From Halobacteria archaeon (lineage in GTDB: Archaea; Methanobacteriota_B; Thermococci; Methanofastidiosales; NM3): a stretch of 64,000 nt of DNA. The notes below the pieces were generated by a model. The model searched no databases and was not told the DNA's origin. It worked only from the letters and a program-made list of their open reading frames with translations. Positions 7,814 to 55,005 of the stretch are shown here, piece after piece. Location: assembly GCA_036733165.1 (NCBI GenBank), contig DAINBB010000001.1:949-64948 (forward strand), written 5' to 3'. The translations under genes and the position numbers were made by a program. How positions within the stretch are numbered: position 1 is the stretch's first letter; each line of letters opens with the position of its first letter.

Positions 7814-8035
7814 TCACCTCAAATACAGCACGGTTTCACAAAAATCGTCATCTGAGAAAAGTATGACCTTGACAAATGGATCGTCAACAGGCCCAAACAC
7901 ATCTACAACCCTGCCAACCTCTTTCATGTTTCTATCTATCACAACCTTACCCATCGTGTTGGCAGAAATCTTTTTTCCCCGCACGACAACGGTCCTCCCA
8001 GAAACGTTGATAACCTCACCTAATCTAGAAACCAT
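7814..8035 (-). CDS. gar1: H/ACA RNP subunit Gar1/Naf1
   Basis: VGRVVDVFGPVDDPFV motif; conserved gar1-tfb gene order. Confidence 0.9.
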   Translation of the reverse strand: MVSRLGEVINVSGRTVVVRGKKISANTMGKVVIDRNMKEVGRVVDVFGPVDDPFVKVILFSDDDFCETVLYLR

Positions 8036-15248: not shown

Positions 15249-15371
15249 TGCCGGGGGCGGGACTTGAACCCGCGGCCTCTCGATTTCCCAGTTATCGCGC
15301 CTTAGACGTTATGAATCCAAATGCTAAGAACTTATGAGTCGAGCGCTATAACCAACCTAAGCCACCCCGGC
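15249..15371 (-). tRNA. tRNA-Met(CAU), elongator type, with a 48-nt intron (15285..15332) at position 37/38
   Basis: Acceptor GCCGGGG/CCCCGGC, anticodon stem CTCGA/TCGAG, T-loop TTCAAGT; BHB helix CTCA/TGGG with two 3-nt bulges; 75 nt after splicing; CCA not encoded. Confidence 0.93.
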
Positions 15372-15979: not shown

Positions 15980-17380
15980 CTATTCCGACTTCTGCCAGTC
16001 TTTGATAATGTCCTTGAAGGAAAGCACCTTCAGATGAAGGGGCTTCTTCGTGATGTTGCCCGTCTTGACACCGACAAGGTACTTAACGTTCCTCTCACCG
16101 GCTATGTCGACAAGCCTCTGCGTTATGACGCCATCGAACACGACGGCATCCACATCATCAGTGTACTTCATCGCATCGACAAGGTCCCTCACAGAAACCT
16201 TCATCTTGACATTGCCATCCTTGTCAAGCACATAGGCGTCAAGGGTTCCCGGAAGTTTCTCTATGATCTCCTTGAACTGCTGAAGATCGGCATCGTCCTT
16301 TGCGTCAGGCTGGGCCTCCTTTATCTCCTTGACATCGTTGTTCTTCATCGGTTTCCTGCTCTTTGGGCCGGCCGGCCTTGGAACCAGCTGCTGCTGTTCC
16401 TGTTGCTCGCCCTGTTCCTGGGGTTGGTATGATGATGAACTGGATGGGGAGGAGCGGGATTCCGAACGTTCGAAGATCTCATTGAGCGCCTGTTCGGCCG
16501 AGACCTTGTTCCTCAACGCCTTGAATACCTCTTTCCTTGTAAGATCCTCGACTTCCTTTCCAGGTGGCGCCCTGGCAAGATTGTCTATCTCGCCGAGCTC
16601 CATCAGTTCCCTGAGTATGAGCTCGCCGCCCCTGTCGCCGTCGATGAAGGCAGTCACTGTCTTCTCCTTTGACAGCTTTATGATCGTGTCAGGCACGGAT
16701 GTGCCCTCCACCGCAATGGCGTTCTTGATACCGTACTTTAAGAGATTGAGAACATCCGCCCTTCCCTCGCAGACTATGATGGCGTCCGAATCGTCTATGT
16801 TGGGCCCCGCAGGAAGGCTCTCAGAACCGTACTTCGTTATCTGTTTAACCCTCACGGCCTGTTTGACCTCTTCGGTAAGCTCCTGGGTCTCGGGGACCTC
16901 TCGGTCCATCATATCCTTGAGTATCTCCTTCGCCCTGTCGACAACATAGGCACGTTTGGAAGACCTTACGTCCTCGATCTTGTTCACGTTGATCTTGGCC
17001 TCACATGGCCCCACCCTGTCGATGGTCTCCAAGGATGCCGCAAGCACAGCCGTCTCTATCTTGTCAAGTGAAGATGGTATAGAAATGCTGCCAAAGGACT
17101 TTCCGCCCTTTGAGTTTATACTGACCCTTATCCTACCTACCCTGCCGGTCTTTTGCAGTTCCCTAAGGTCAAGGTCATCGCCTAGGAGCCCCTCTGTCTG
17201 TCCGAAGATCGCGCCCACCACATCAGGCCTCTCAACTATTCCCGAGGCGTTTATATTGGCTTGTATGATGTATTTTGTGGTACCGATCTCGTTCTTAAGG
17301 GTGACATCAGTCTTTTTCTCTTTATCCTGGTTAACTTTTAATTCTAAGTTTTTCTTTGATTTTATGAAACACACCCCCAA
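15980..17380 (-). CDS. dnaG: Archaeal DnaG-type primase (exosome-associated); exact start uncertain
   Basis: GAIFGQTEGLLG, ELQKTGRVGRI, TOPRIM CEGRADV and DGDRGG; low-complexity S/Q linker. Confidence 0.95.
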   Translation of the reverse strand: MGVCFIKSKKNLELKVNQDKEKKTDVTLKNEIGTTKYIIQANINASGIVERPDVVGAIFGQTEGLLGDDLDLRELQKTGRVGRIRVSINSKGGKSFGSISIPSSLDKIETAVLAASLETIDRVGPCEAKINVNKIEDVRSSKRAYVVDRAKEILKDMMDREVPETQELTEEVKQAVRVKQITKYGSESLPAGPNIDDSDAIIVCEGRADVLNLLKYGIKNAIAVEGTSVPDTIIKLSKEKTVTAFIDGDRGGELILRELMELGEIDNLARAPPGKEVEDLTRKEVFKALRNKVSAEQALNEIFERSESRSSPSSSSSYQPQEQGEQQEQQQLVPRPAGPKSRKPMKNNDVKEIKEAQPDAKDDADLQQFKEIIEKLPGTLDAYVLDKDGNVKMKVSVRDLVDAMKYTDDVDAVVFDGVITQRLVDIAGERNVKYLVGVKTGNITKKPLHLKVLSFKDIIKDWQKSE

Positions 17381-17636
17381 TGATAGGTCGCAAGAAATAG
17401 ATTTACAAATATTGGGTTTTCACATTACAATTTTACGCTTAGGCGAATGAAATGAATGATGAATCTGTAATCTGAAATCTTACGACACAGTTATGATATG
17501 TCATAATACCTATTTCTGGTCAGATAGATATATTCTGTGTGATATATTAATCTTTTGGTATTATTTATGATGATAAGAAGAAGAGAATTTATTTAAAAAC
17601 TTATTGGTAGTTCCTCTTTGAGAAAAATGTCCCAAA

Positions 17637-17924
17637 TCATCTCATATTGTTCCTTATTAAGGACAATACGTCCTCTTTTTTGGCTGATACGCCAATAGAT
17701 TTTTCCCTGTTCAGTGCGCCGCCGATAATCCACGAGTCGCCAAGTTTCCTGAAGAAGGATAATACCTCCTCATTGGCCTTTCCCTTCTGCGCCTTCGAGG
17801 TGATCTTGAATTTGAATCTTTGACGCCATTCATCCCATACGATGGAGAACTGCTTTGAGTTCGGGACCACCTCTATGTCAACTGTGACCGTTCCTTCGGC
17901 TTCGGTGATGGCATTCTCCATCAT
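17637..17924 (-). CDS. DUF167 / UPF0235 (YggU-like) protein
   Basis: VVPNSK ... AQKGKANEEV motif. Confidence 0.88.
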   Translation of the reverse strand: MMENAITEAEGTVTVDIEVVPNSKQFSIVWDEWRQRFKFKITSKAQKGKANEEVLSFFRKLGDSWIIGGALNREKSIGVSAKKEDVLSLIRNNMR

Positions 17925-18108
17925 GGTATCACTGTAAGGGGGTAATGTTGCCCGTCACACTAACATCCAAGATTCATTGTCCGGGAATCCTCTCTCCATC
18001 AGATAACTCTCATGGCGGGCTGTCCTGTATCGGGGTTGACTGCCGGATCATCTCAGGCCAAAGCTAAATCACCGTAGGACCCATAACGATACAAGGCTGC
18101 AGAACAGC
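17925..18108 (-). ncRNA. Candidate structured RNA (leader or sRNA), family unassigned
   Basis: No ORF over 60 aa in the track and only short ATG-started frames on the minus strand; TATA (TTTATATA) about 25 nt upstream on the minus strand; nested helices GGAGUCC/GGAUUCC, GCUGU/ACAGC, CUUGUAUCG/CGAUACAGG. Confidence 0.45.
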
Positions 18109-18158
18109 GGACTCCAATATACAAAACATATATAAATAGATTAGCCTTTGAATGCACC

Positions 18159-19526
18159 ATGAAAAAGGTGGGAATGGGGGTAGACTTCGATCCGGTGCAC
18201 AGAGGGCATATCCATCTGATCAACGAGGCCAAGAAACTGGGAAAGGTCTACGCCTACATAAATGAGGACTTCACCGCGCATCACGCGCATCCCTTCCTCA
18301 GCTATGAGGCGAGGGCGGAGATATGCGAGGCCCTCGGTGTGGAACCTGTTCCCGTGAGCGGATTGCACTACAGGCTTCCGCTATCATACACCGTACCAAT
18401 ACGGATCCATATATTGGCCAATGACGGGATGACGGACATCATGGACGCCGAGGCGTCCCACCTTCCAAAAGAGGAGATATTCAGGCTTGCAAGTATGTTT
18501 GCAGAAAAAGAGATGCTCATGGGCATTCCAAGGGAGTGGCCGGACAGGAATCTGATAAGGTGGATAGCGGCCAATGACCTGTATGGCATGAGGCACAAGA
18601 GGAAGATGGATTACCATATCACTCCCACTTACAAGATAGACAACGAGACCGTCTCGGGAAGGTACATCAGGAAAGCCATACTGGAAAGCGGCAGGATAAC
18701 CGCCCCCGTCAGGCACCTGATACCCTCCCAAACGGAGAAAATCATCGAAAGGGAGATGAGGGAGGGCAACCTGCAGGGGGGCAGGGACCTCGATACGCTC
18801 CTCCATGTTGCAAACAAGTATTCCAAGTCAAAGCTCCTGAAGATCGCCAATATCAATGTCGAGGCGGCGGAGAAGCTCGTGACTGGCAGGCCTTACGATG
18901 ATGAGGAAAAGCTCTACTATCCCCTGAGAAGGGCGGGATACCAGCATGTCCTGTCTAATCTGGCCATCTCGTGCATGGAGAAGAAGGTGACCAGAAAGGA
19001 GGTGGCGCAGCTCATTGCCAACTATACGAAAAAGGGCATCACACCTAAGGACCAGACTATTGAGAATCTTGTGGAGAGGGCCCACTTCGTCGCCAGGGCG
19101 TCAAGACTGACCGATGCGAATCGGGCTGATTCCATATTCCGCGCAGGGATAGGGGACTTCTGGAACGAGAACTTCAAGGACCTATCTCAACTGTCGGGTG
19201 TTGACATAGGAGAGCTGAAAGAGCTGAGGAGGAAGATCGAATACCGGCAGCCGCCCGAGAGCCTGCTTGCCGGGATCAAACTAAGTTTCTCCGACTTCAA
19301 GAAGATAGACCTCGGCACGAACTGCGACATATCCGCAAGGGGTTCTGAGCTGACGGCAGAGCTGAGAATTCCAAATAAGGTCATGGTAGGGGCGCTTAGG
19401 CTGCCTGCCGAAGAGGTCACGTTCCTGAGATTCCTCTTGGACTCCCAATTGGTGCCGATATCCAGCAAGGTCGAGATGCCCGAAGGCAAGATTCGGATAA
19501 GGATAGGCTACGGACTGACTATGTAG
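18159..19526 (+). CDS. HIGH-family nucleotidyltransferase (COG1323/TmcAL-like) with C-terminal extension
   Basis: DFDPVHRGH, GLHYRLPLSYTVPIRI and SGRYIR motifs. Confidence 0.75.
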   Translation: MKKVGMGVDFDPVHRGHIHLINEAKKLGKVYAYINEDFTAHHAHPFLSYEARAEICEALGVEPVPVSGLHYRLPLSYTVPIRIHILANDGMTDIMDAEASHLPKEEIFRLASMFAEKEMLMGIPREWPDRNLIRWIAANDLYGMRHKRKMDYHITPTYKIDNETVSGRYIRKAILESGRITAPVRHLIPSQTEKIIEREMREGNLQGGRDLDTLLHVANKYSKSKLLKIANINVEAAEKLVTGRPYDDEEKLYYPLRRAGYQHVLSNLAISCMEKKVTRKEVAQLIANYTKKGITPKDQTIENLVERAHFVARASRLTDANRADSIFRAGIGDFWNENFKDLSQLSGVDIGELKELRRKIEYRQPPESLLAGIKLSFSDFKKIDLGTNCDISARGSELTAELRIPNKVMVGALRLPAEEVTFLRFLLDSQLVPISSKVEMPEGKIRIRIGYGLTM

Positions 19527-20587
19527 TTCCTATCCGCGGTCCTTAGCACCATTACCTCGTCGCCCTGGGCAATGCCCTCTGGCAGGTCCCCTTTCTCCAT
19601 GTCGAACGAAGAGTATCCATCCATCACCATGATCTGGCAACCTCCCTCGTCAAGGGATACGACCATGGCCTTGGAGAGTTCCGGCCCCTCTATCAGGCGC
19701 AGATTTCCCTGTGAGGACTCCTTCTCTATCTTCTTGAAGTCCAGCGCCAGCGTGGTGTCGAAGTTGCCGAGCGTCACCTTGTCGATGGAATGCTTTATCT
19801 TCCATAATCTGTCATCGTACAGGACGAATCGCCCTTCCTCGAACTGGGAGAGTCTTAGGACCACGGTGGCCCTGTACCTTGCCTTGCCTTCCTGCCTGTC
19901 GTATCCGGTAAGCCTGTATGATTCGGATACGCCGCCTCCGTACTCCTTCTGCAATGCCCTTGCAAGCTTCTTTGTGAACTTCAGCGAGCCCATCTGGAAG
20001 TTCGGCCCCTCCTTCTTTTTTATGACCTTCGTTACGAAGGCCATGCTGTTCTTCTCAAGCTCCTGGGCAGACATCCCATTCACTTTCCCAACGAAGAAAT
20101 CGGACTCCTCGGAGGTCAGGAATCTTTCCTCCCGCCTTATCTGGAAGGTCGCCTCATAGTATCCCCCGTACATCTTGGAACATCTGGGGCAGGTCGTGTA
20201 TCTTGGATGAACCACGAACCTGTGCCTTTCACGCCTGGGCACCTTTGAATAGGCATCGGGAAGGCCATATGACTCGGCCTCAACATCAATATATTCCTCG
20301 TGAGCGTCAAAATCGTAGCGTACCTGTATCTTCAGGTCCTCGGGTTCTGTCAACGCGTCGGTGAATACGACCTTCCTCTTTCCGGCGGCCTGGACTATCA
20401 GTCCCTCGATGATGTCCTCGATGACGCTGAACTCCTTCCATTCGCCAAGAAGGAACGTGTCGCAGTTGCTGCAGATTGTCACGTCGTATTTGGCTTCCAT
20501 GGGGAACAAGCGAGATAGTTCAGAATAGCAATCGGGACAGAGCCCATCGATGAGCTCACATTCCCTTCCACACTTATAGCAGAACAT
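19508..20587 (-). CDS. nmd3: NMD3 family ribosome biogenesis protein
   Basis: CYKCG/CPDC/CSNC/CPRC zinc motifs and GGYYEATFQIR. Confidence 0.92.
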   Translation of the reverse strand: MFCYKCGRECELIDGLCPDCYSELSRLFPMEAKYDVTICSNCDTFLLGEWKEFSVIEDIIEGLIVQAAGKRKVVFTDALTEPEDLKIQVRYDFDAHEEYIDVEAESYGLPDAYSKVPRRERHRFVVHPRYTTCPRCSKMYGGYYEATFQIRREERFLTSEESDFFVGKVNGMSAQELEKNSMAFVTKVIKKKEGPNFQMGSLKFTKKLARALQKEYGGGVSESYRLTGYDRQEGKARYRATVVLRLSQFEEGRFVLYDDRLWKIKHSIDKVTLGNFDTTLALDFKKIEKESSQGNLRLIEGPELSKAMVVSLDEGGCQIMVMDGYSSFDMEKGDLPEGIAQGDEVMVLRTADRNYIVSP

Positions 20588-20591
20588 TCAC

Positions 20592-20888
20592 TCACACTGT
20601 AACCATTTGTGCGTGCCTGGTAGAGCCGATGTTGAGTATGTTGTCCTCGTCTATGAACTCGCATTCAACAGCTCTTCTGATGCTCTCATGTCCAACGATG
20701 TTCAAGATGGAAGCCAACTTCAGGAACTTTTCCAGCTCATCCATCTCGATGAGCTTTCCCTTATAGAAGGATTCGTTCACGAACAGCTTCAGTCTGCCCT
20801 CCTTGAACTCCTTGCCCAGCACATCCTCGTCGCATACTGCCACAAGCACATCGTTACAGGCCTTGTGAACCTTTACATAGACCTTCAT
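20592..20888 (-). CDS. DUF424 family protein
   Basis: MKVYVKVH...AVCDEDVLG...FYKG...NIVG motif; usual position between aIF2-beta and nmd3. Confidence 0.88.
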   Translation of the reverse strand: MKVYVKVHKACNDVLVAVCDEDVLGKEFKEGRLKLFVNESFYKGKLIEMDELEKFLKLASILNIVGHESIRRAVECEFIDEDNILNIGSTRHAQMVTV

Positions 20889-20895
20889 CAGATCA

Positions 20896-21309
20896 CTAGA
20901 TGTTCTTGATAGGATGCTTGGCGCCGCATGCCTCACACCTAAGGAAGTATATCCGTCCTTCCTTTATTATCTTTGTGTCAGGTTTGTCGCATTCGGGGCA
21001 CAGGACATAGTTATCGGCATATTTCTGGACCTTGTCCTGTATGAAGTTCTGGGAGAACTTTCCTTGGAAGACGGCCTGTGAACCCTCTATGTTCCCAGAT
21101 GTTGCCATCTCGCCAAGCAGGAACTTCATGAAATGATTCTCATCTCTCCTGAATATGCCTATCAGCTCCCTGAAGTTCTTGATGATCGTCTTGTTTCCCA
21201 CGGTTATCGTCTTGATCTTGGGCATCTCGAACCTTGAGCCCTCGAACAGATTCTTTGGCAATGAATCCCTTGCCTGATCCAATAATTTCTCATAATCATA
21301 ATCCGACAT
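20896..21309 (-). CDS. eif2b: Translation initiation factor aIF-2 beta
   Basis: YEKLLDQA, YVLCPECDKPDT and CEACGA motifs. Confidence 0.96.
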   Translation of the reverse strand: MSDYDYEKLLDQARDSLPKNLFEGSRFEMPKIKTITVGNKTIIKNFRELIGIFRRDENHFMKFLLGEMATSGNIEGSQAVFQGKFSQNFIQDKVQKYADNYVLCPECDKPDTKIIKEGRIYFLRCEACGAKHPIKNI

Positions 21310-25133: not shown

Positions 25134-25208
25134 TGGGCCCGCCGAGATTTGAACTCGAGACCTCCCGGTTATCAGCCGGACGCTCTAACCAAACTAAGCC
25201 ACGGGCCC
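25134..25208 (-). tRNA. tRNA-Ile(GAU)
   Basis: GGGCCCG/CGGGCCC acceptor, anticodon stem TCCGG/CCGGG with loop CT-GAT-AA, T-loop TTCAAAT. Confidence 0.96.
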
Positions 25209-34376: not shown

Positions 34377-35426
34377 TCAATATGCGGTCTTGAACCTCAG
34401 GGCGGCTGCAATGCCCCCTATCCCGTTCAACTTGTCCCCACCCTCGTGCGAAGTGGAGATGATATGCGACCTGGTCCCAAACTTCTTTGACATCTTGATT
34501 ATGTCCTGGACCTCTTCGGAGGTCCTTAGCAGATCGTCCGTGACAAGGACATACTCTGCCTGGGAGGCCTCGATGGCCTCTCTGACCTCCTTTGTGCCGT
34601 ATACGGCCATGTCCTCAAGGATCTTGCGGAATAGGTCCTCGATAAGCGCTATCTCGTTGGCGACCCTCGACTCCTCATATATCTCCTCCACATACCCCCT
34701 TTTGACGACCTCCCATATGCCGGTCCTCCCATTGACCGATATGTTCTTCATGTTCAGCCTTGATGTCAGCTTGGGCATGTTCTCTTTGATCCATGAAAAG
34801 AAGTCGTCTTTCACGAACCCCGGGCCGGCCACTATGGCCGCCTTGATCTCGGACTCTGCGAAGATAGACTCTATCTTATCGGCCACCTCCTTGAAGAAAG
34901 CCATCTTCTCGCTCTTTCTCTGCGACATCTCCCTCTTGCCAGGTATGTTCCGATTGATGGACGCGATAAAATCTATCCCATATTGTTTGACAATGCCAAA
35001 GTCGCTTTCCCCCTCATCGATGGCCACTATCAGTATCTTCGGTTCCTTGGAGGACCTGATGGCCTCCTGTATCCTGTCAAGCTGGAAACCTTTCCATGCC
35101 TTGATTATCTTGGGCGTGGAACCGACCTCGATGTTCAATGTATGGTAGCTGCCCATCTGGTCCCCTTCGATGATCACGCCGGTGAGACGCAATGTGTCAG
35201 AATAGTGGGAGAACTCCATCTTCTCCACCTTTATTCCCATATACACCCTGACCTTCTCTGTCTTGTCGGACCTGACCATATCGTTCCTGGACTGCTGCCT
35301 CCTATAGGTCACAGAATAGACATCATCGCCAGATTCCACTATCTGTGAGAGATGCCAAAGGTCGTCAAGGGTCTCTATCTTGAGCTTTATCTCACCCTTC
35401 GATAGGTCCTTGTGTATGATCTTCAT
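34377..35426 (-). CDS. pelA: mRNA surveillance / ribosome rescue protein Pelota
   Basis: LDDLWHL, YHTLNI, PGK, GGIAAALRF motifs. Confidence 0.96.
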   Translation of the reverse strand: MKIIHKDLSKGEIKLKIETLDDLWHLSQIVESGDDVYSVTYRRQQSRNDMVRSDKTEKVRVYMGIKVEKMEFSHYSDTLRLTGVIIEGDQMGSYHTLNIEVGSTPKIIKAWKGFQLDRIQEAIRSSKEPKILIVAIDEGESDFGIVKQYGIDFIASINRNIPGKREMSQRKSEKMAFFKEVADKIESIFAESEIKAAIVAGPGFVKDDFFSWIKENMPKLTSRLNMKNISVNGRTGIWEVVKRGYVEEIYEESRVANEIALIEDLFRKILEDMAVYGTKEVREAIEASQAEYVLVTDDLLRTSEEVQDIIKMSKKFGTRSHIISTSHEGGDKLNGIGGIAAALRFKTAY

Positions 35427-46729: not shown

Positions 46730-46954
46730 CTATATCCTGAGATTCTCGTCGATTATCTTGATCCAGTTGAGATATGAATTGAAAGTGCCCCTGATGGCGT
46801 TGATGTCCTCGCCTTCGATAGTTATATAGAGGCGGTCTCCCTCCAGGGAGATGCTGGACCTTGTCTTCTTGTATGGCACAGATTCTATCTCGGGAGTCAG
46901 TGCCTCATAGAACTTTTTTGCATTGGGGTCGTCAAGCTCTATCCTCATCTGCAT
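46730..46954 (-). CDS. pcc1: KEOPS complex subunit Pcc1
   Basis: YEALTPE...IEGEDINAIRGTFNSYLNWI; superoperon position. Confidence 0.88.
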   Translation of the reverse strand: MQMRIELDDPNAKKFYEALTPEIESVPYKKTRSSISLEGDRLYITIEGEDINAIRGTFNSYLNWIKIIDENLRI

Positions 46955-54932: not shown

Positions 54933-55005
54933 AGCCGGGTAGGGTAGGGGACAATCCTTTGGGCCTTTGGAGCCCGAGACTGCGGTTCGAATCCGCGCCC
55001 GGCTA
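54933..55005 (+). tRNA. tRNA-Gln(UUG)
   Basis: A1-U72 acceptor AGCCGGG/CCCGGCT, loop CT-TTG-GA, T-loop TTCGAAT. Confidence 0.93.

Follow-up and report, generated by a model that had tools for sequence, protein, structure and literature searches.

A conserved RNA upstream of a DUF167 gene is very probably an archaeal box H/ACA guide RNA with two guide hairpins

The locus described here lies in a 64,000-nucleotide stretch of archaeal DNA (hereafter referred to as the window). A gene of the DUF167/YggU family, encoding 95 amino acids (Pfam PF02594, E = 2e-11), occupies positions 17637–17924 of the minus strand, with a T5 tract (17623–17627) found 3′ of its stop codon. It is followed by a nucleotidyltransferase gene with a HIGH motif, on the plus strand (18159–19526). 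No convincing open reading frame was identified in the interval between the two. Its central part, at 17946–18108 on the minus strand, is a conserved, GC-rich non-coding RNA gene located downstream of a TATA box and divergent from the nucleotidyltransferase gene. The GC content of the RNA interval (0.48–0.54) equals that of coding DNA, compared to 0.23–0.33 in the next intergenic region; an earlier interpretation made from the letters alone (the sequence-only reading) had already described this segment as non-coding and richer in GC than the intergenic DNA nearby, and both points hold. The window also carries an intron-containing tRNA, genes of the archaeal DnaG, NMD3 and aIF2-beta types, and TATA-box promoters, and the flanking nucleotidyltransferase has its nearest named relatives in MAGs that carry the label Candidatus Methanofastidiosia.

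I searched the whole window against Rfam at gathering thresholds, which returned three tRNAs and nothing else, with no match at the RNA region. Around the RNA, relaxing the threshold to E ≤ 10 produced chance-level matches only (a flavivirus stem-loop, mir-488, algC and an HCV stem-loop). This agrees with the sequence-only reading, which by eye had seen no match to the TPP, FMN, SAM-I, c-di-AMP, cobalamin, fluoride, SRP or RNase P consensus and had called the RNA unassigned, rightly so insofar as no Rfam family matches. Nor was any similarity to the Pyrococcus H/ACA RNAs found via the Rfam families, which I take to include those of the Hgc type (HgcE/F/G).

The TATA box, TTTATATA, had been spotted previously, and is found at 18129–18136 on the minus strand (TATATAAA when read on the plus strand). 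It is present in most of the 11 relatives described below, with variants TATATATA in locus L008 and TTTAAATG in locus L009. RNA positions are numbered here such that position p corresponds to window coordinate 18109−p. The last base of the TATA box is 20 nt from RNA position 1 (G18108), and 20–22 nt from the GCUG motif at the start of the RNA in the relatives counted. Because of this spacing, and of the usual geometry of archaeal promoters, a start near GCUG is expected; transcription likely begins at about G18108, or within a few nucleotides of GCUG, and not at the upstream GGAGUCC as had been proposed. On its other side, 22 nt separate the TATA box from the start codon (ATG) of the nucleotidyltransferase gene, which is divergent. 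If the same element serves the other strand, the nucleotidyltransferase transcript would be leaderless.

At its 3′ end, the RNA is separated from the DUF167 start codon by a tail of 21 nt (17925–17945, minus strand). This includes a Shine-Dalgarno-like AGUGAU (17928–17933, minus strand), and GGUGAU or a close variant occupies the same place in most relatives (GUGGUA in L001, UGUGAU in L009). No promoter-like element was seen between the RNA and the DUF167 reading frame. Since the 21-nt gap possesses a Shine-Dalgarno motif and no promoter, DUF167 is most likely read from the transcript carrying the RNA, and this layout suggests that the two are probably co-transcribed, with the RNA as the 5′ part of the transcript.

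Eleven relatives of the nucleotidyltransferase were found in the databases, nine of them full-length, with 63–80% identity. Their contigs share a common gene order: DnaG, DUF167, a gap of ∼230 nt, the nucleotidyltransferase, NMD3, DUF424 and aIF2-beta. A pattern scan of metagenome contigs gave four loci, two of which belong to new lineages, and a protein search of the genome-contig collection with the nucleotidyltransferase gave no relatives. The comparative set employed hereafter consists of 11 distinct versions of the syntenic gap sequence. A near-identical RNA is present in all 11 of these loci, despite the limited identity of the flanking nucleotidyltransferase: over the 163 nt from GCUG onward, identity is 87% per column, with long invariant blocks. 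The relatives show no conservation over the ∼20 nt leading from the TATA box to GCUG. A covariance model (R1) identified no copy upstream of a more distant nucleotidyltransferase homologue (L014–L017), and no paralogue elsewhere in the window.

I then derived a structure from the RNAalifold consensus of the relatives, with manual refinement. It comprises 44 canonical pairs, and 93.6% of the cells in the matrix of pairs by 11 sequences are paired. Double-sided changes are found at 10 pairs, compared to 4.5±1.2 in column shuffles (none of the 500 shuffles reached 10), and in slid controls, where the partners were moved by one to three columns, only 0–2 pairs had changes on both sides. Folding of the single sequence revealed no significant stability on either strand, and the minimum free energy (MFE) of the minus-strand RNA is no better than that of shuffled sequences (z = −0.75); the evidence for the RNA structure is therefore comparative, not thermodynamic. 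This unremarkable folding energy is also what favours reading the interval as a chance GC-rich spacer, or the remnant of a decayed gene, with no function. I consider this to have almost no chance of being correct, as the RNA is near-invariant where the neighbouring proteins have diverged to an extent that shows the loci are not near-clonal, and as its stems have undergone compensatory changes while the adjoining spacer is not conserved. A gene remnant is further disfavoured by the lack of an open reading frame, with a stop codon in the window where the relatives have none. On these comparative grounds, the RNA is a real, functional-looking element and a new sequence family.

The RNA begins with a 5′ mini-hairpin, labeled P0 (RNA 1–13, 18096–18108, minus strand), with the pattern GCUG(N)-loop-(N)CAGC. 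Its first four pairs, GCUG with CAGC, are conserved, and inspection by eye shows covariation of a fifth, which is U-A, U.G or C-G depending on the relative; the loops are variable, UUCG being among them. P0 alone folds at −4.2 kcal/mol, and the transcript probably starts with it. It is followed by hairpin 1 (RNA 14–85, 18024–18095, minus strand), defined by RNAalifold and by covariation. The lower stem (RNA 14–22/77–85) is the 9-bp helix CUUGUAUCG/CGAUACAGG, followed directly by ACA; this helix had been recognised in the sequence-only reading, and is confirmed by covariation. The ACA box (RNA 86–88, 18021–18023, minus strand) also forms the hinge between the two hairpins, and is AUA in L009 and ACA in the other relatives. 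Above the lower stem, an internal loop, or pocket, is formed by the 5′ strand UUAUGGGUC (RNA 23–31) and the 3′ strand UCAACCC (RNA 70–76, NCAACCC among the relatives), both of which are invariant except for the first base of the 3′ strand. The upper stem (RNA 32–37/63–69) consists of 6 bp with one bulge, and leads to a K-turn with U38 at position 3n, G39 A40, an apical C-stem (41–56), a 3-nt bulge, L1–L3 (57–59), G60 A61, and U62 at position 3b. Residues G39, A40, U59, G60 and A61 are invariant, and covariation is observed in the lower stem, in the upper stem and at the first pair of the C-stem, where U-A is replaced by G-C in L013.

Hairpin 2 (RNA 89–159, 17950–18020, minus strand) was obtained from the RNAalifold consensus. 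Its lower stem, GCCCG.CAUG/UGUG.CGGGC (RNA 89–98/150–159), includes 5+4 bp and one mismatch, and reads GCCCG.CAYG/UGUG.CGGGC over the relatives. The pocket strands are AGAGU (99–103) and UUAG (146–149), and the upper stem, UAUYYGA/UYRRAUG (RNA 104–110/139–145), possesses 7–8 pairs. The K-turn is made of U111, G112, G113 A114, a C-stem (115–130), a bulge (131–133), G134 A135, A136 and U137, with C138 bulged. In both stems, 100% of the cells are paired over the 11 sequences. Compensatory changes are found in the upper stem, at 107/142 and 108/141, and a U.G pair is replaced by C-G at 97/151 in the lower stem. This pair aside, the lower stem and the pocket do not vary, and so they have no covariation evidence. 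At the apex, a tandem G.A/A.G is swapped for G-C/C-G in L010, L011, L012 and L018. A second ACA box (RNA 161–163, 17946–17948, minus strand) is found one nucleotide past the lower stem, and is invariant in 11 of 11 sequences.

For hairpin 2 as a naked RNA, the window sequence has an alternative fold at −21.6 kcal/mol, against −13.6 kcal/mol for the consensus fold, with an energy model that ignores G.A pairs and proteins and that places the alternative on a par with the consensus fold or above it. The alternative helices do not covary, and variable positions break their pairing in 2–9 of the sequences. Single-sequence folding is misleading for this hairpin. I also considered a K-loop with a basal C-stem, CCA-YGA-GA...GA-UGG, which was dropped since 142/141 are the covarying partners of 107/108; a pseudoknot, CCCG/CGGG, whose positions are all invariant, and where CGGGC belongs to the hairpin 2 lower stem; and the helix AGGAUUC/GAAUCUU of the window MFE fold, which shows no covariation, is broken in relatives, and clashes with covarying long-range pairs.

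As judged from the alignment, most of the helices proposed in the sequence-only reading are likewise wrong. The suggested outer helix GGAGUCC/GGAUUCC would take its 5′ strand (18109–18115) from the spacer that leads from the TATA box to the RNA and is not conserved. In the pairing GGGUC/GAUCC, GGGUC is part of the invariant guide, and the alignment places GAUCC over the invariant GA of a K-turn and a covarying upper stem. A CCAU/AUGG hairpin has no covariation, is broken in relatives and clashes with covarying long-range pairs, and an AUGUU/AACAU hairpin, whose residues are invariant, would take up an ACA box and part of a covarying upper stem. The 9-bp pairing GCUGUUCUG/CAGGACAGC, put forward as a switch, is specific to the window and requires loop nucleotides that vary freely in the relatives.

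These pairings bear directly on whether the RNA could control DUF167 expression in cis, as an mRNA leader or riboswitch that changes fold upon binding of a ligand or protein. Its location between the promoter and the DUF167 Shine-Dalgarno motif, with no promoter intervening, is what such an element would require, the alternative fold of hairpin 2 is energetically competitive, and the 5′ GCUG is able to pair with either of two CAGC copies. However, the alternative helices are the ones that lack covariation and are broken in relatives, the 9-bp switch pairing is not conserved, and the relaxed Rfam search (E ≤ 10) produced no riboswitch match. I found no conserved terminator or anti-Shine-Dalgarno element, U-tracts after the 3′ ACA being present in some relatives only, and the single-stranded loops, which are invariant, show complementarity to rRNA and do not form a junction resembling a ligand pocket. 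A regulatory leader is therefore very unlikely. The sequence-only reading had left the choice between a riboswitch-like leader and a guide small RNA; its second option is favoured by the H/ACA architecture and by pockets complementary to 23S rRNA, and the switch is not upheld.

Accordingly, I assign this element, with high though not full confidence and from its sequence and alignment, as an archaeal box H/ACA guide RNA gene of ∼165 nt, possessing two guide hairpins. H/ACA RNAs are a fast-evolving class, so no match to an Rfam family is expected. The kind of RNA is thus well known; what is new here is a sequence family with no Rfam match, not a new class, and not a riboswitch. The earlier remark on an ACA after a 9-bp stem, and the suggestion of an L7Ae pull-down, are consistent with an H/ACA guide RNA. 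A gene for Gar1, an H/ACA RNP core protein (73 amino acids, 7814–8035, minus strand), is identified in the window by its match to Pfam PF04410 (E = 5.6e-08, 32.9 bits, for a cut-off of 29.3 bits), indicating that this genome encodes the H/ACA machinery at least in part.

For archaeal H/ACA motifs, a study in Pyrococcus gives a minimum of 7 bp for the lower helix, 5–11 nt for each loop strand, an upper helix of 5–6 bp with at most one bulge, and an ANA box 14–15 nt from the target uridine (PMC2377435). In addition, a K-turn or K-loop with tandem sheared G:A pairs is expected, the distal pair being 9–10 positions above the base of the upper stem, and the ANA is 15±1 nt from the target (PMC7075261). 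Hairpin 1 lies within all of these values: its lower stem spans 9 bp and its pocket strands 9 and 7 nt, a single bulge interrupts the 6-bp upper stem, and position 9 is occupied by the distal G:A. For hairpin 2, the lower stem is 9(+1) bp and the pocket strands are 5 and 4 nt, or larger if the weak closing pairs open; its upper stem exceeds the published 5–6 bp by 1–2 bp, which puts the distal G:A at position 11 (position 10 with the closing U.G open). All 11 sequences have an ANA box after each hairpin (ACA or AUA at 86–88, ACA at 161–163), and each box is 14 nt from the last pocket base pairing with the predicted target, helix 69 in the case of the 3′ box. Both hairpins carry the sequence signature of a K-turn, 5′-stem-N-GA-[apical stem-loop]-NNN-GA-N-stem-3′, oriented such that the upper stem would be the non-canonical and the apical stem the canonical helix, as is usual for archaeal H/ACA RNAs. 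All four GA dinucleotides (G39 A40/G60 A61 and G113 A114/G134 A135) are invariant, L3 is U, save for G in hairpin 2 of one relative, and the first C-stem pair is Watson-Crick.

From what is known of the H/ACA family, the following mechanism can be proposed. The RNA would be transcribed from the TATA box at 18129–18136 as the 5′ part of the DUF167 transcript, and would then be trimmed or stabilised as an RNP. L7Ae would bind the K-turn at the top of each hairpin, and Cbf5, with Nop10 and Gar1, would bind each lower stem and its ACA box. The strands of the internal loop would pair with 23S rRNA on both sides of a uridine, which Cbf5 would convert to pseudouridine. These steps, namely L7Ae binding, Cbf5 binding and pseudouridylation, are inferred from the family.

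An H/ACA guide is expected to pair through both pocket strands, over 8 bp or more in total, around an unpaired U-N in its target RNA. In order to predict targets, I gathered 57 archaeal 23S loci with a pattern anchored on the sarcin-ricin loop, and ran a pocket-pairing script on the 24 loci that include most of the rRNA operon, all from archaea other than this lineage. For pocket 1, the commonest site is GCUGGGUU[U]AGACCGUCG, found in 11 of the 24 loci and corresponding to U2586 in the E. coli K-12 23S numbering. The pairing consists of GGGUU:AACCC and GACC:GGUC, with the U-A between them unpaired, giving 5+4 = 9 Watson-Crick pairs and a target at n+15. For pocket 2, the conserved site is in helix 69, AGUAACUA[U]AACUCUCUUA, equivalent to E. 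coli U1917; here ACUA:UAGU and ACUCUC:GAGAGU provide 4+6 = 10 Watson-Crick pairs, again with an unpaired U-A and a target at n+15. In an alternative, UNUN register, in which the closing U.G of hairpin 2 is open, UAAC:GUUA pairs, UAUA is left unpaired, and U1915 also lies in the pocket. When the pockets were shuffled with their composition preserved (20,000 trials), the two scores were reached in 166 (0.8%) and 84 (0.4%) of the trials, and both together in 0. Helix 69 differs among archaea (ACUCUC vs ACCCUC), and the pocket 2 match was computed on the 23S of other archaea.

On the basis of these pairings, I consider the U2586 and U1917/1915 equivalents of 23S rRNA to be fairly probable targets. 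Hairpin 1 would guide modification of the peptidyl transferase centre (PTC) uridine in GGGUU[U]AGACC, and the PTC of this lineage is predicted to read GGGUUUAGACC. Hairpin 2 would guide that of helix 69 U1917 in UAACUA[U]AACUCUC, with the helix 69 of this lineage predicted to be UAACUAU(A/G)ACUCUC. In Haloarcula marismortui, the 23S rRNA possesses exactly three pseudouridines, equivalent to E. coli 1915, 1917 and 2586, all of which were assigned to Cbf5 and a guide RNA (PMC2584109). When numbering offsets were used to place the predicted sites on the list of P. abyssi pseudouridines, the outcome was not consistent. A further candidate, the GGGUUGU site of helix 97, which lies 3′ of the sarcin-ricin loop, was rejected, since the 5′ pocket strand pairs over only 3 bp.

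The RNA could also be a genuine H/ACA guide with other targets, hairpin 1 acting on U2554 of the A-loop instead of, or besides, U2586, or on another RNA such as a tRNA. In archaea with GGGGUUGUUCGCCCAU, pocket 1 pairs even more extensively, over 6+6 bp, with the A-loop (GGGUUG[U]UC-GCCCAU; A-loop form GGGGUUG[U]UCGCCCAUUA), and this is the top match in two Thermoplasmata loci (L070 and L067) and in a Halobacteriales MAG (L044). An A-loop target may also explain the partial complementarity of the two pocket 1 strands, which pair as GGGU/ACCC in the MFE fold. The pairing, however, leaves three nucleotides unpaired, has a spacing of n+16 and skips the pocket base beside the upper stem, and A-loops differ from one archaeon to another, with GGCUG and GGUUG forms. 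As the U2586 pairing corresponds in detail to the tested 5′ stem-loop (SL1) of the Haloferax guide described below, with two A's pairing to UU and U-A unpaired, I regard such alternative targets as rather unlikely, and U2586 is retained as the predicted target of hairpin 1.

The closest known system is sR-h45 from Haloferax volcanii, a two-hairpin H/ACA RNA. Its 5′ stem-loop guides formation of psi2605 (the U2586 equivalent), with U2603 and U2604 each pairing to an A in the 3′ strand of the pocket and U2605-A2606 left unpaired, and its 3′ stem-loop guides both psi1940 and psi1942, the UNUN there being unpaired (PMC7075261). Similarly, two H/ACA hairpins are found here in a single RNA, both RNAs being in the range of ∼165–200 nt, and the predicted sites follow the same 5′-to-3′ order: the 5′ pocket fits the U2586 equivalent, with two A's facing UU and U-A unpaired, and the 3′ pocket fits helix 69 (1915/1917). 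Both RNAs have a K-turn with tandem G:A in each upper stem, and a hinge starting with ANA and then GC (the H box AUAGCU in sR-h45, ACAGCC or AUAGCC here). In contrast, the Haloferax hairpins are separated by a 56-nt spacer, with a possible pseudoknot, where those described here abut on the 3-nt ACA; the additional 5′ mini-hairpin and the genomic context also differ, and the helix 69 arm is GAGAGU here (matching ACUCUC), Haloferax helix 69 being ACCCUC. Judged by layout and pairing, the RNA is most probably the functional counterpart of sR-h45.

The motif design, with a K-turn or K-loop, is also shared with Pab21, Pab35, Pab40, Pab91, Pab105, Pab160 and Pab19 of Pyrococcus and Thermococcus; the Pyrococcus motif is described from seven sRNAs with one to three hairpins each (PMC2377435). 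As in the present case, targets reported there are located in rRNA domains IV and V, and include P. abyssi 23S position 2016, guided by motif 3 of Pab40 (PMC2377435). I infer that this position is the helix 69 site; in Pyrococcus it is served by a three-hairpin RNA, through its third motif, and not by a two-hairpin layout, and the functional Pyrococcus motifs have a 5–6 bp upper helix, shorter than that of hairpin 2. With eukaryotic box H/ACA snoRNAs, the RNA shares the hairpin-hinge-hairpin-tail organization, the ANA-containing hinge, the 3′ ACA, the pseudouridylation pocket and the n+15 rule. It differs from these by the L7Ae-type K-turn signature in each hairpin, as eukaryotic H/ACA snoRNAs have no K-turn and their Nhp2 binds non-specifically, and by a hinge reduced to ACA, compared to the ANANNA H box and longer single-stranded hinge of eukaryotes.

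A conserved and previously unassigned RNA of an uncultured methanogen class thereby obtains a predicted function, the pseudouridylation of helix 69 and the PTC, two 23S sites of central functional importance. If correct, the Haloferax design of a single RNA with two hairpins, for the PTC and helix 69, would also be present, in a more compact form, in a distant euryarchaeal lineage, and such a wider spread would bear on the age of this design. The alignment and covariance model could be used to seed a new RNA family.

The sole unusual aspect of this RNA is its conserved placement as the probable 5′ part of the DUF167 transcript. The order of the RNA and DUF167 is kept in every syntenic locus that extends far enough, and a search for DUF167 homologues gave only two clusters, the linkage being seen within the Methanofastidiosia clade. 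It is conceivable, though rather unlikely, that the H/ACA RNA and DUF167 constitute a functional unit. An RNP of L7Ae and Cbf5 assembled on the leader could control DUF167 translation or the processing of its mRNA; alternatively, the DUF167 protein could act as a cofactor, either in rRNA pseudouridylation guided by H/ACA RNAs or in the maturation of the large subunit. Either version, if true, would offer a first functional handle on DUF167, and the tight, conserved arrangement provides a small lead on a protein family with no known function. The same gene cluster also holds NMD3 and aIF2-beta.

The DUF167/YggU gene (17637–17924, minus strand) starts 21 nucleotides past the 3' ACA box of the predicted two-hairpin H/ACA guide RNA (17946–18108, minus strand), and this tight arrangement is kept in all relatives whose loci extend that far, which belong to a single clade. 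The intervening 17925–17945 contains a Shine-Dalgarno-like sequence upstream of the ORF, but no promoter for DUF167/YggU itself was found there. The lack of a promoter of its own, the proximity to the 3' ACA box and the conservation of the arrangement in relatives together suggest that the H/ACA guide RNA is obligatorily co-transcribed with the DUF167 gene, whose protein product has no known function. A search for DUF167 homologues returned only two clusters, and the linkage is therefore known within this clade.

Upstream of the guide RNA, the gap (18109–18158) that separates it from the divergent nucleotidyltransferase gene (18159–19526, plus strand) includes a near-palindromic TATA element at 18129–18136, TTTATATA / TATATAAA, which seems to be common to both units. 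On the minus strand, the first base of the guide RNA is 20 nucleotides from the last TATA base; on the plus strand, the nucleotidyltransferase ATG is 22 nucleotides from the element. The spacing is identical in L001, the related locus compared with the window. Given a shared element this close to the ATG, the nucleotidyltransferase mRNA would be leaderless.

For hairpin 2 (17950–18020, minus strand) of the naked guide RNA, with the sequence it has in the window, the energy model favours a non-H/ACA fold (−21.6 versus −13.6 kcal/mol); in several relatives, the H/ACA and alternative folds of this hairpin are roughly equal in modeled energy. No covariation support was found for the alternative fold of hairpin 2, which might be relevant to folding of the RNA prior to protein binding. 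At the 5' end, a GCUG (within 18096–18108, minus strand) has two possible partners: a nearby CAGC, forming the P0 mini-hairpin, or an identical CAGC (within 18018–18023, minus strand) that runs from the hinge ACA into the start of hairpin 2. Covariation of the fifth pair favours the local P0 hairpin over pairing with the hinge. In one relative (L009), both copies are altered, CAGC to AAGC and ACAGC to AUAGC. P0 might protect the 5' end, or keep the hinge from mispairing.

In archaeal 23S rRNA loci, the stem of helix 69, the predicted target of hairpin 2, is GGGAG...CUCUC or GGGGG...CCCUC depending on the lineage, and the loop reads UAACUAUAA, UAACUAUGA or UAACUCUGA. Since stem and loop differ between lineages, helix 69 guide RNAs must co-vary with their own rRNA, which could be used for testing guide-target assignments across archaea.

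The window also encodes a 73-residue ORF (7814–8035, minus strand) matching Gar1, an H/ACA RNP core protein (PF04410; score 32.9 bits, cut-off 29.3 bits); it and the guide RNA gene are ∼10 kb apart. The guide RNA itself lies in a conserved cluster (15980–21309, and in the related loci) with DnaG, DUF167, the HIGH-motif nucleotidyltransferase, NMD3, DUF424 and aIF2-beta; among these genes, several are tied to translation or ribosome biogenesis. Elsewhere are an eRF1/Pelota-like gene (34377–35426), a Pcc1 gene (46730–46954) and tRNA genes at 25134–25208 (minus strand) and 54933–55005 (plus strand). A further tRNA gene, just beyond DnaG (15249–15371, minus strand), carries a 50-nucleotide anticodon-loop insertion of the archaeal intron type.
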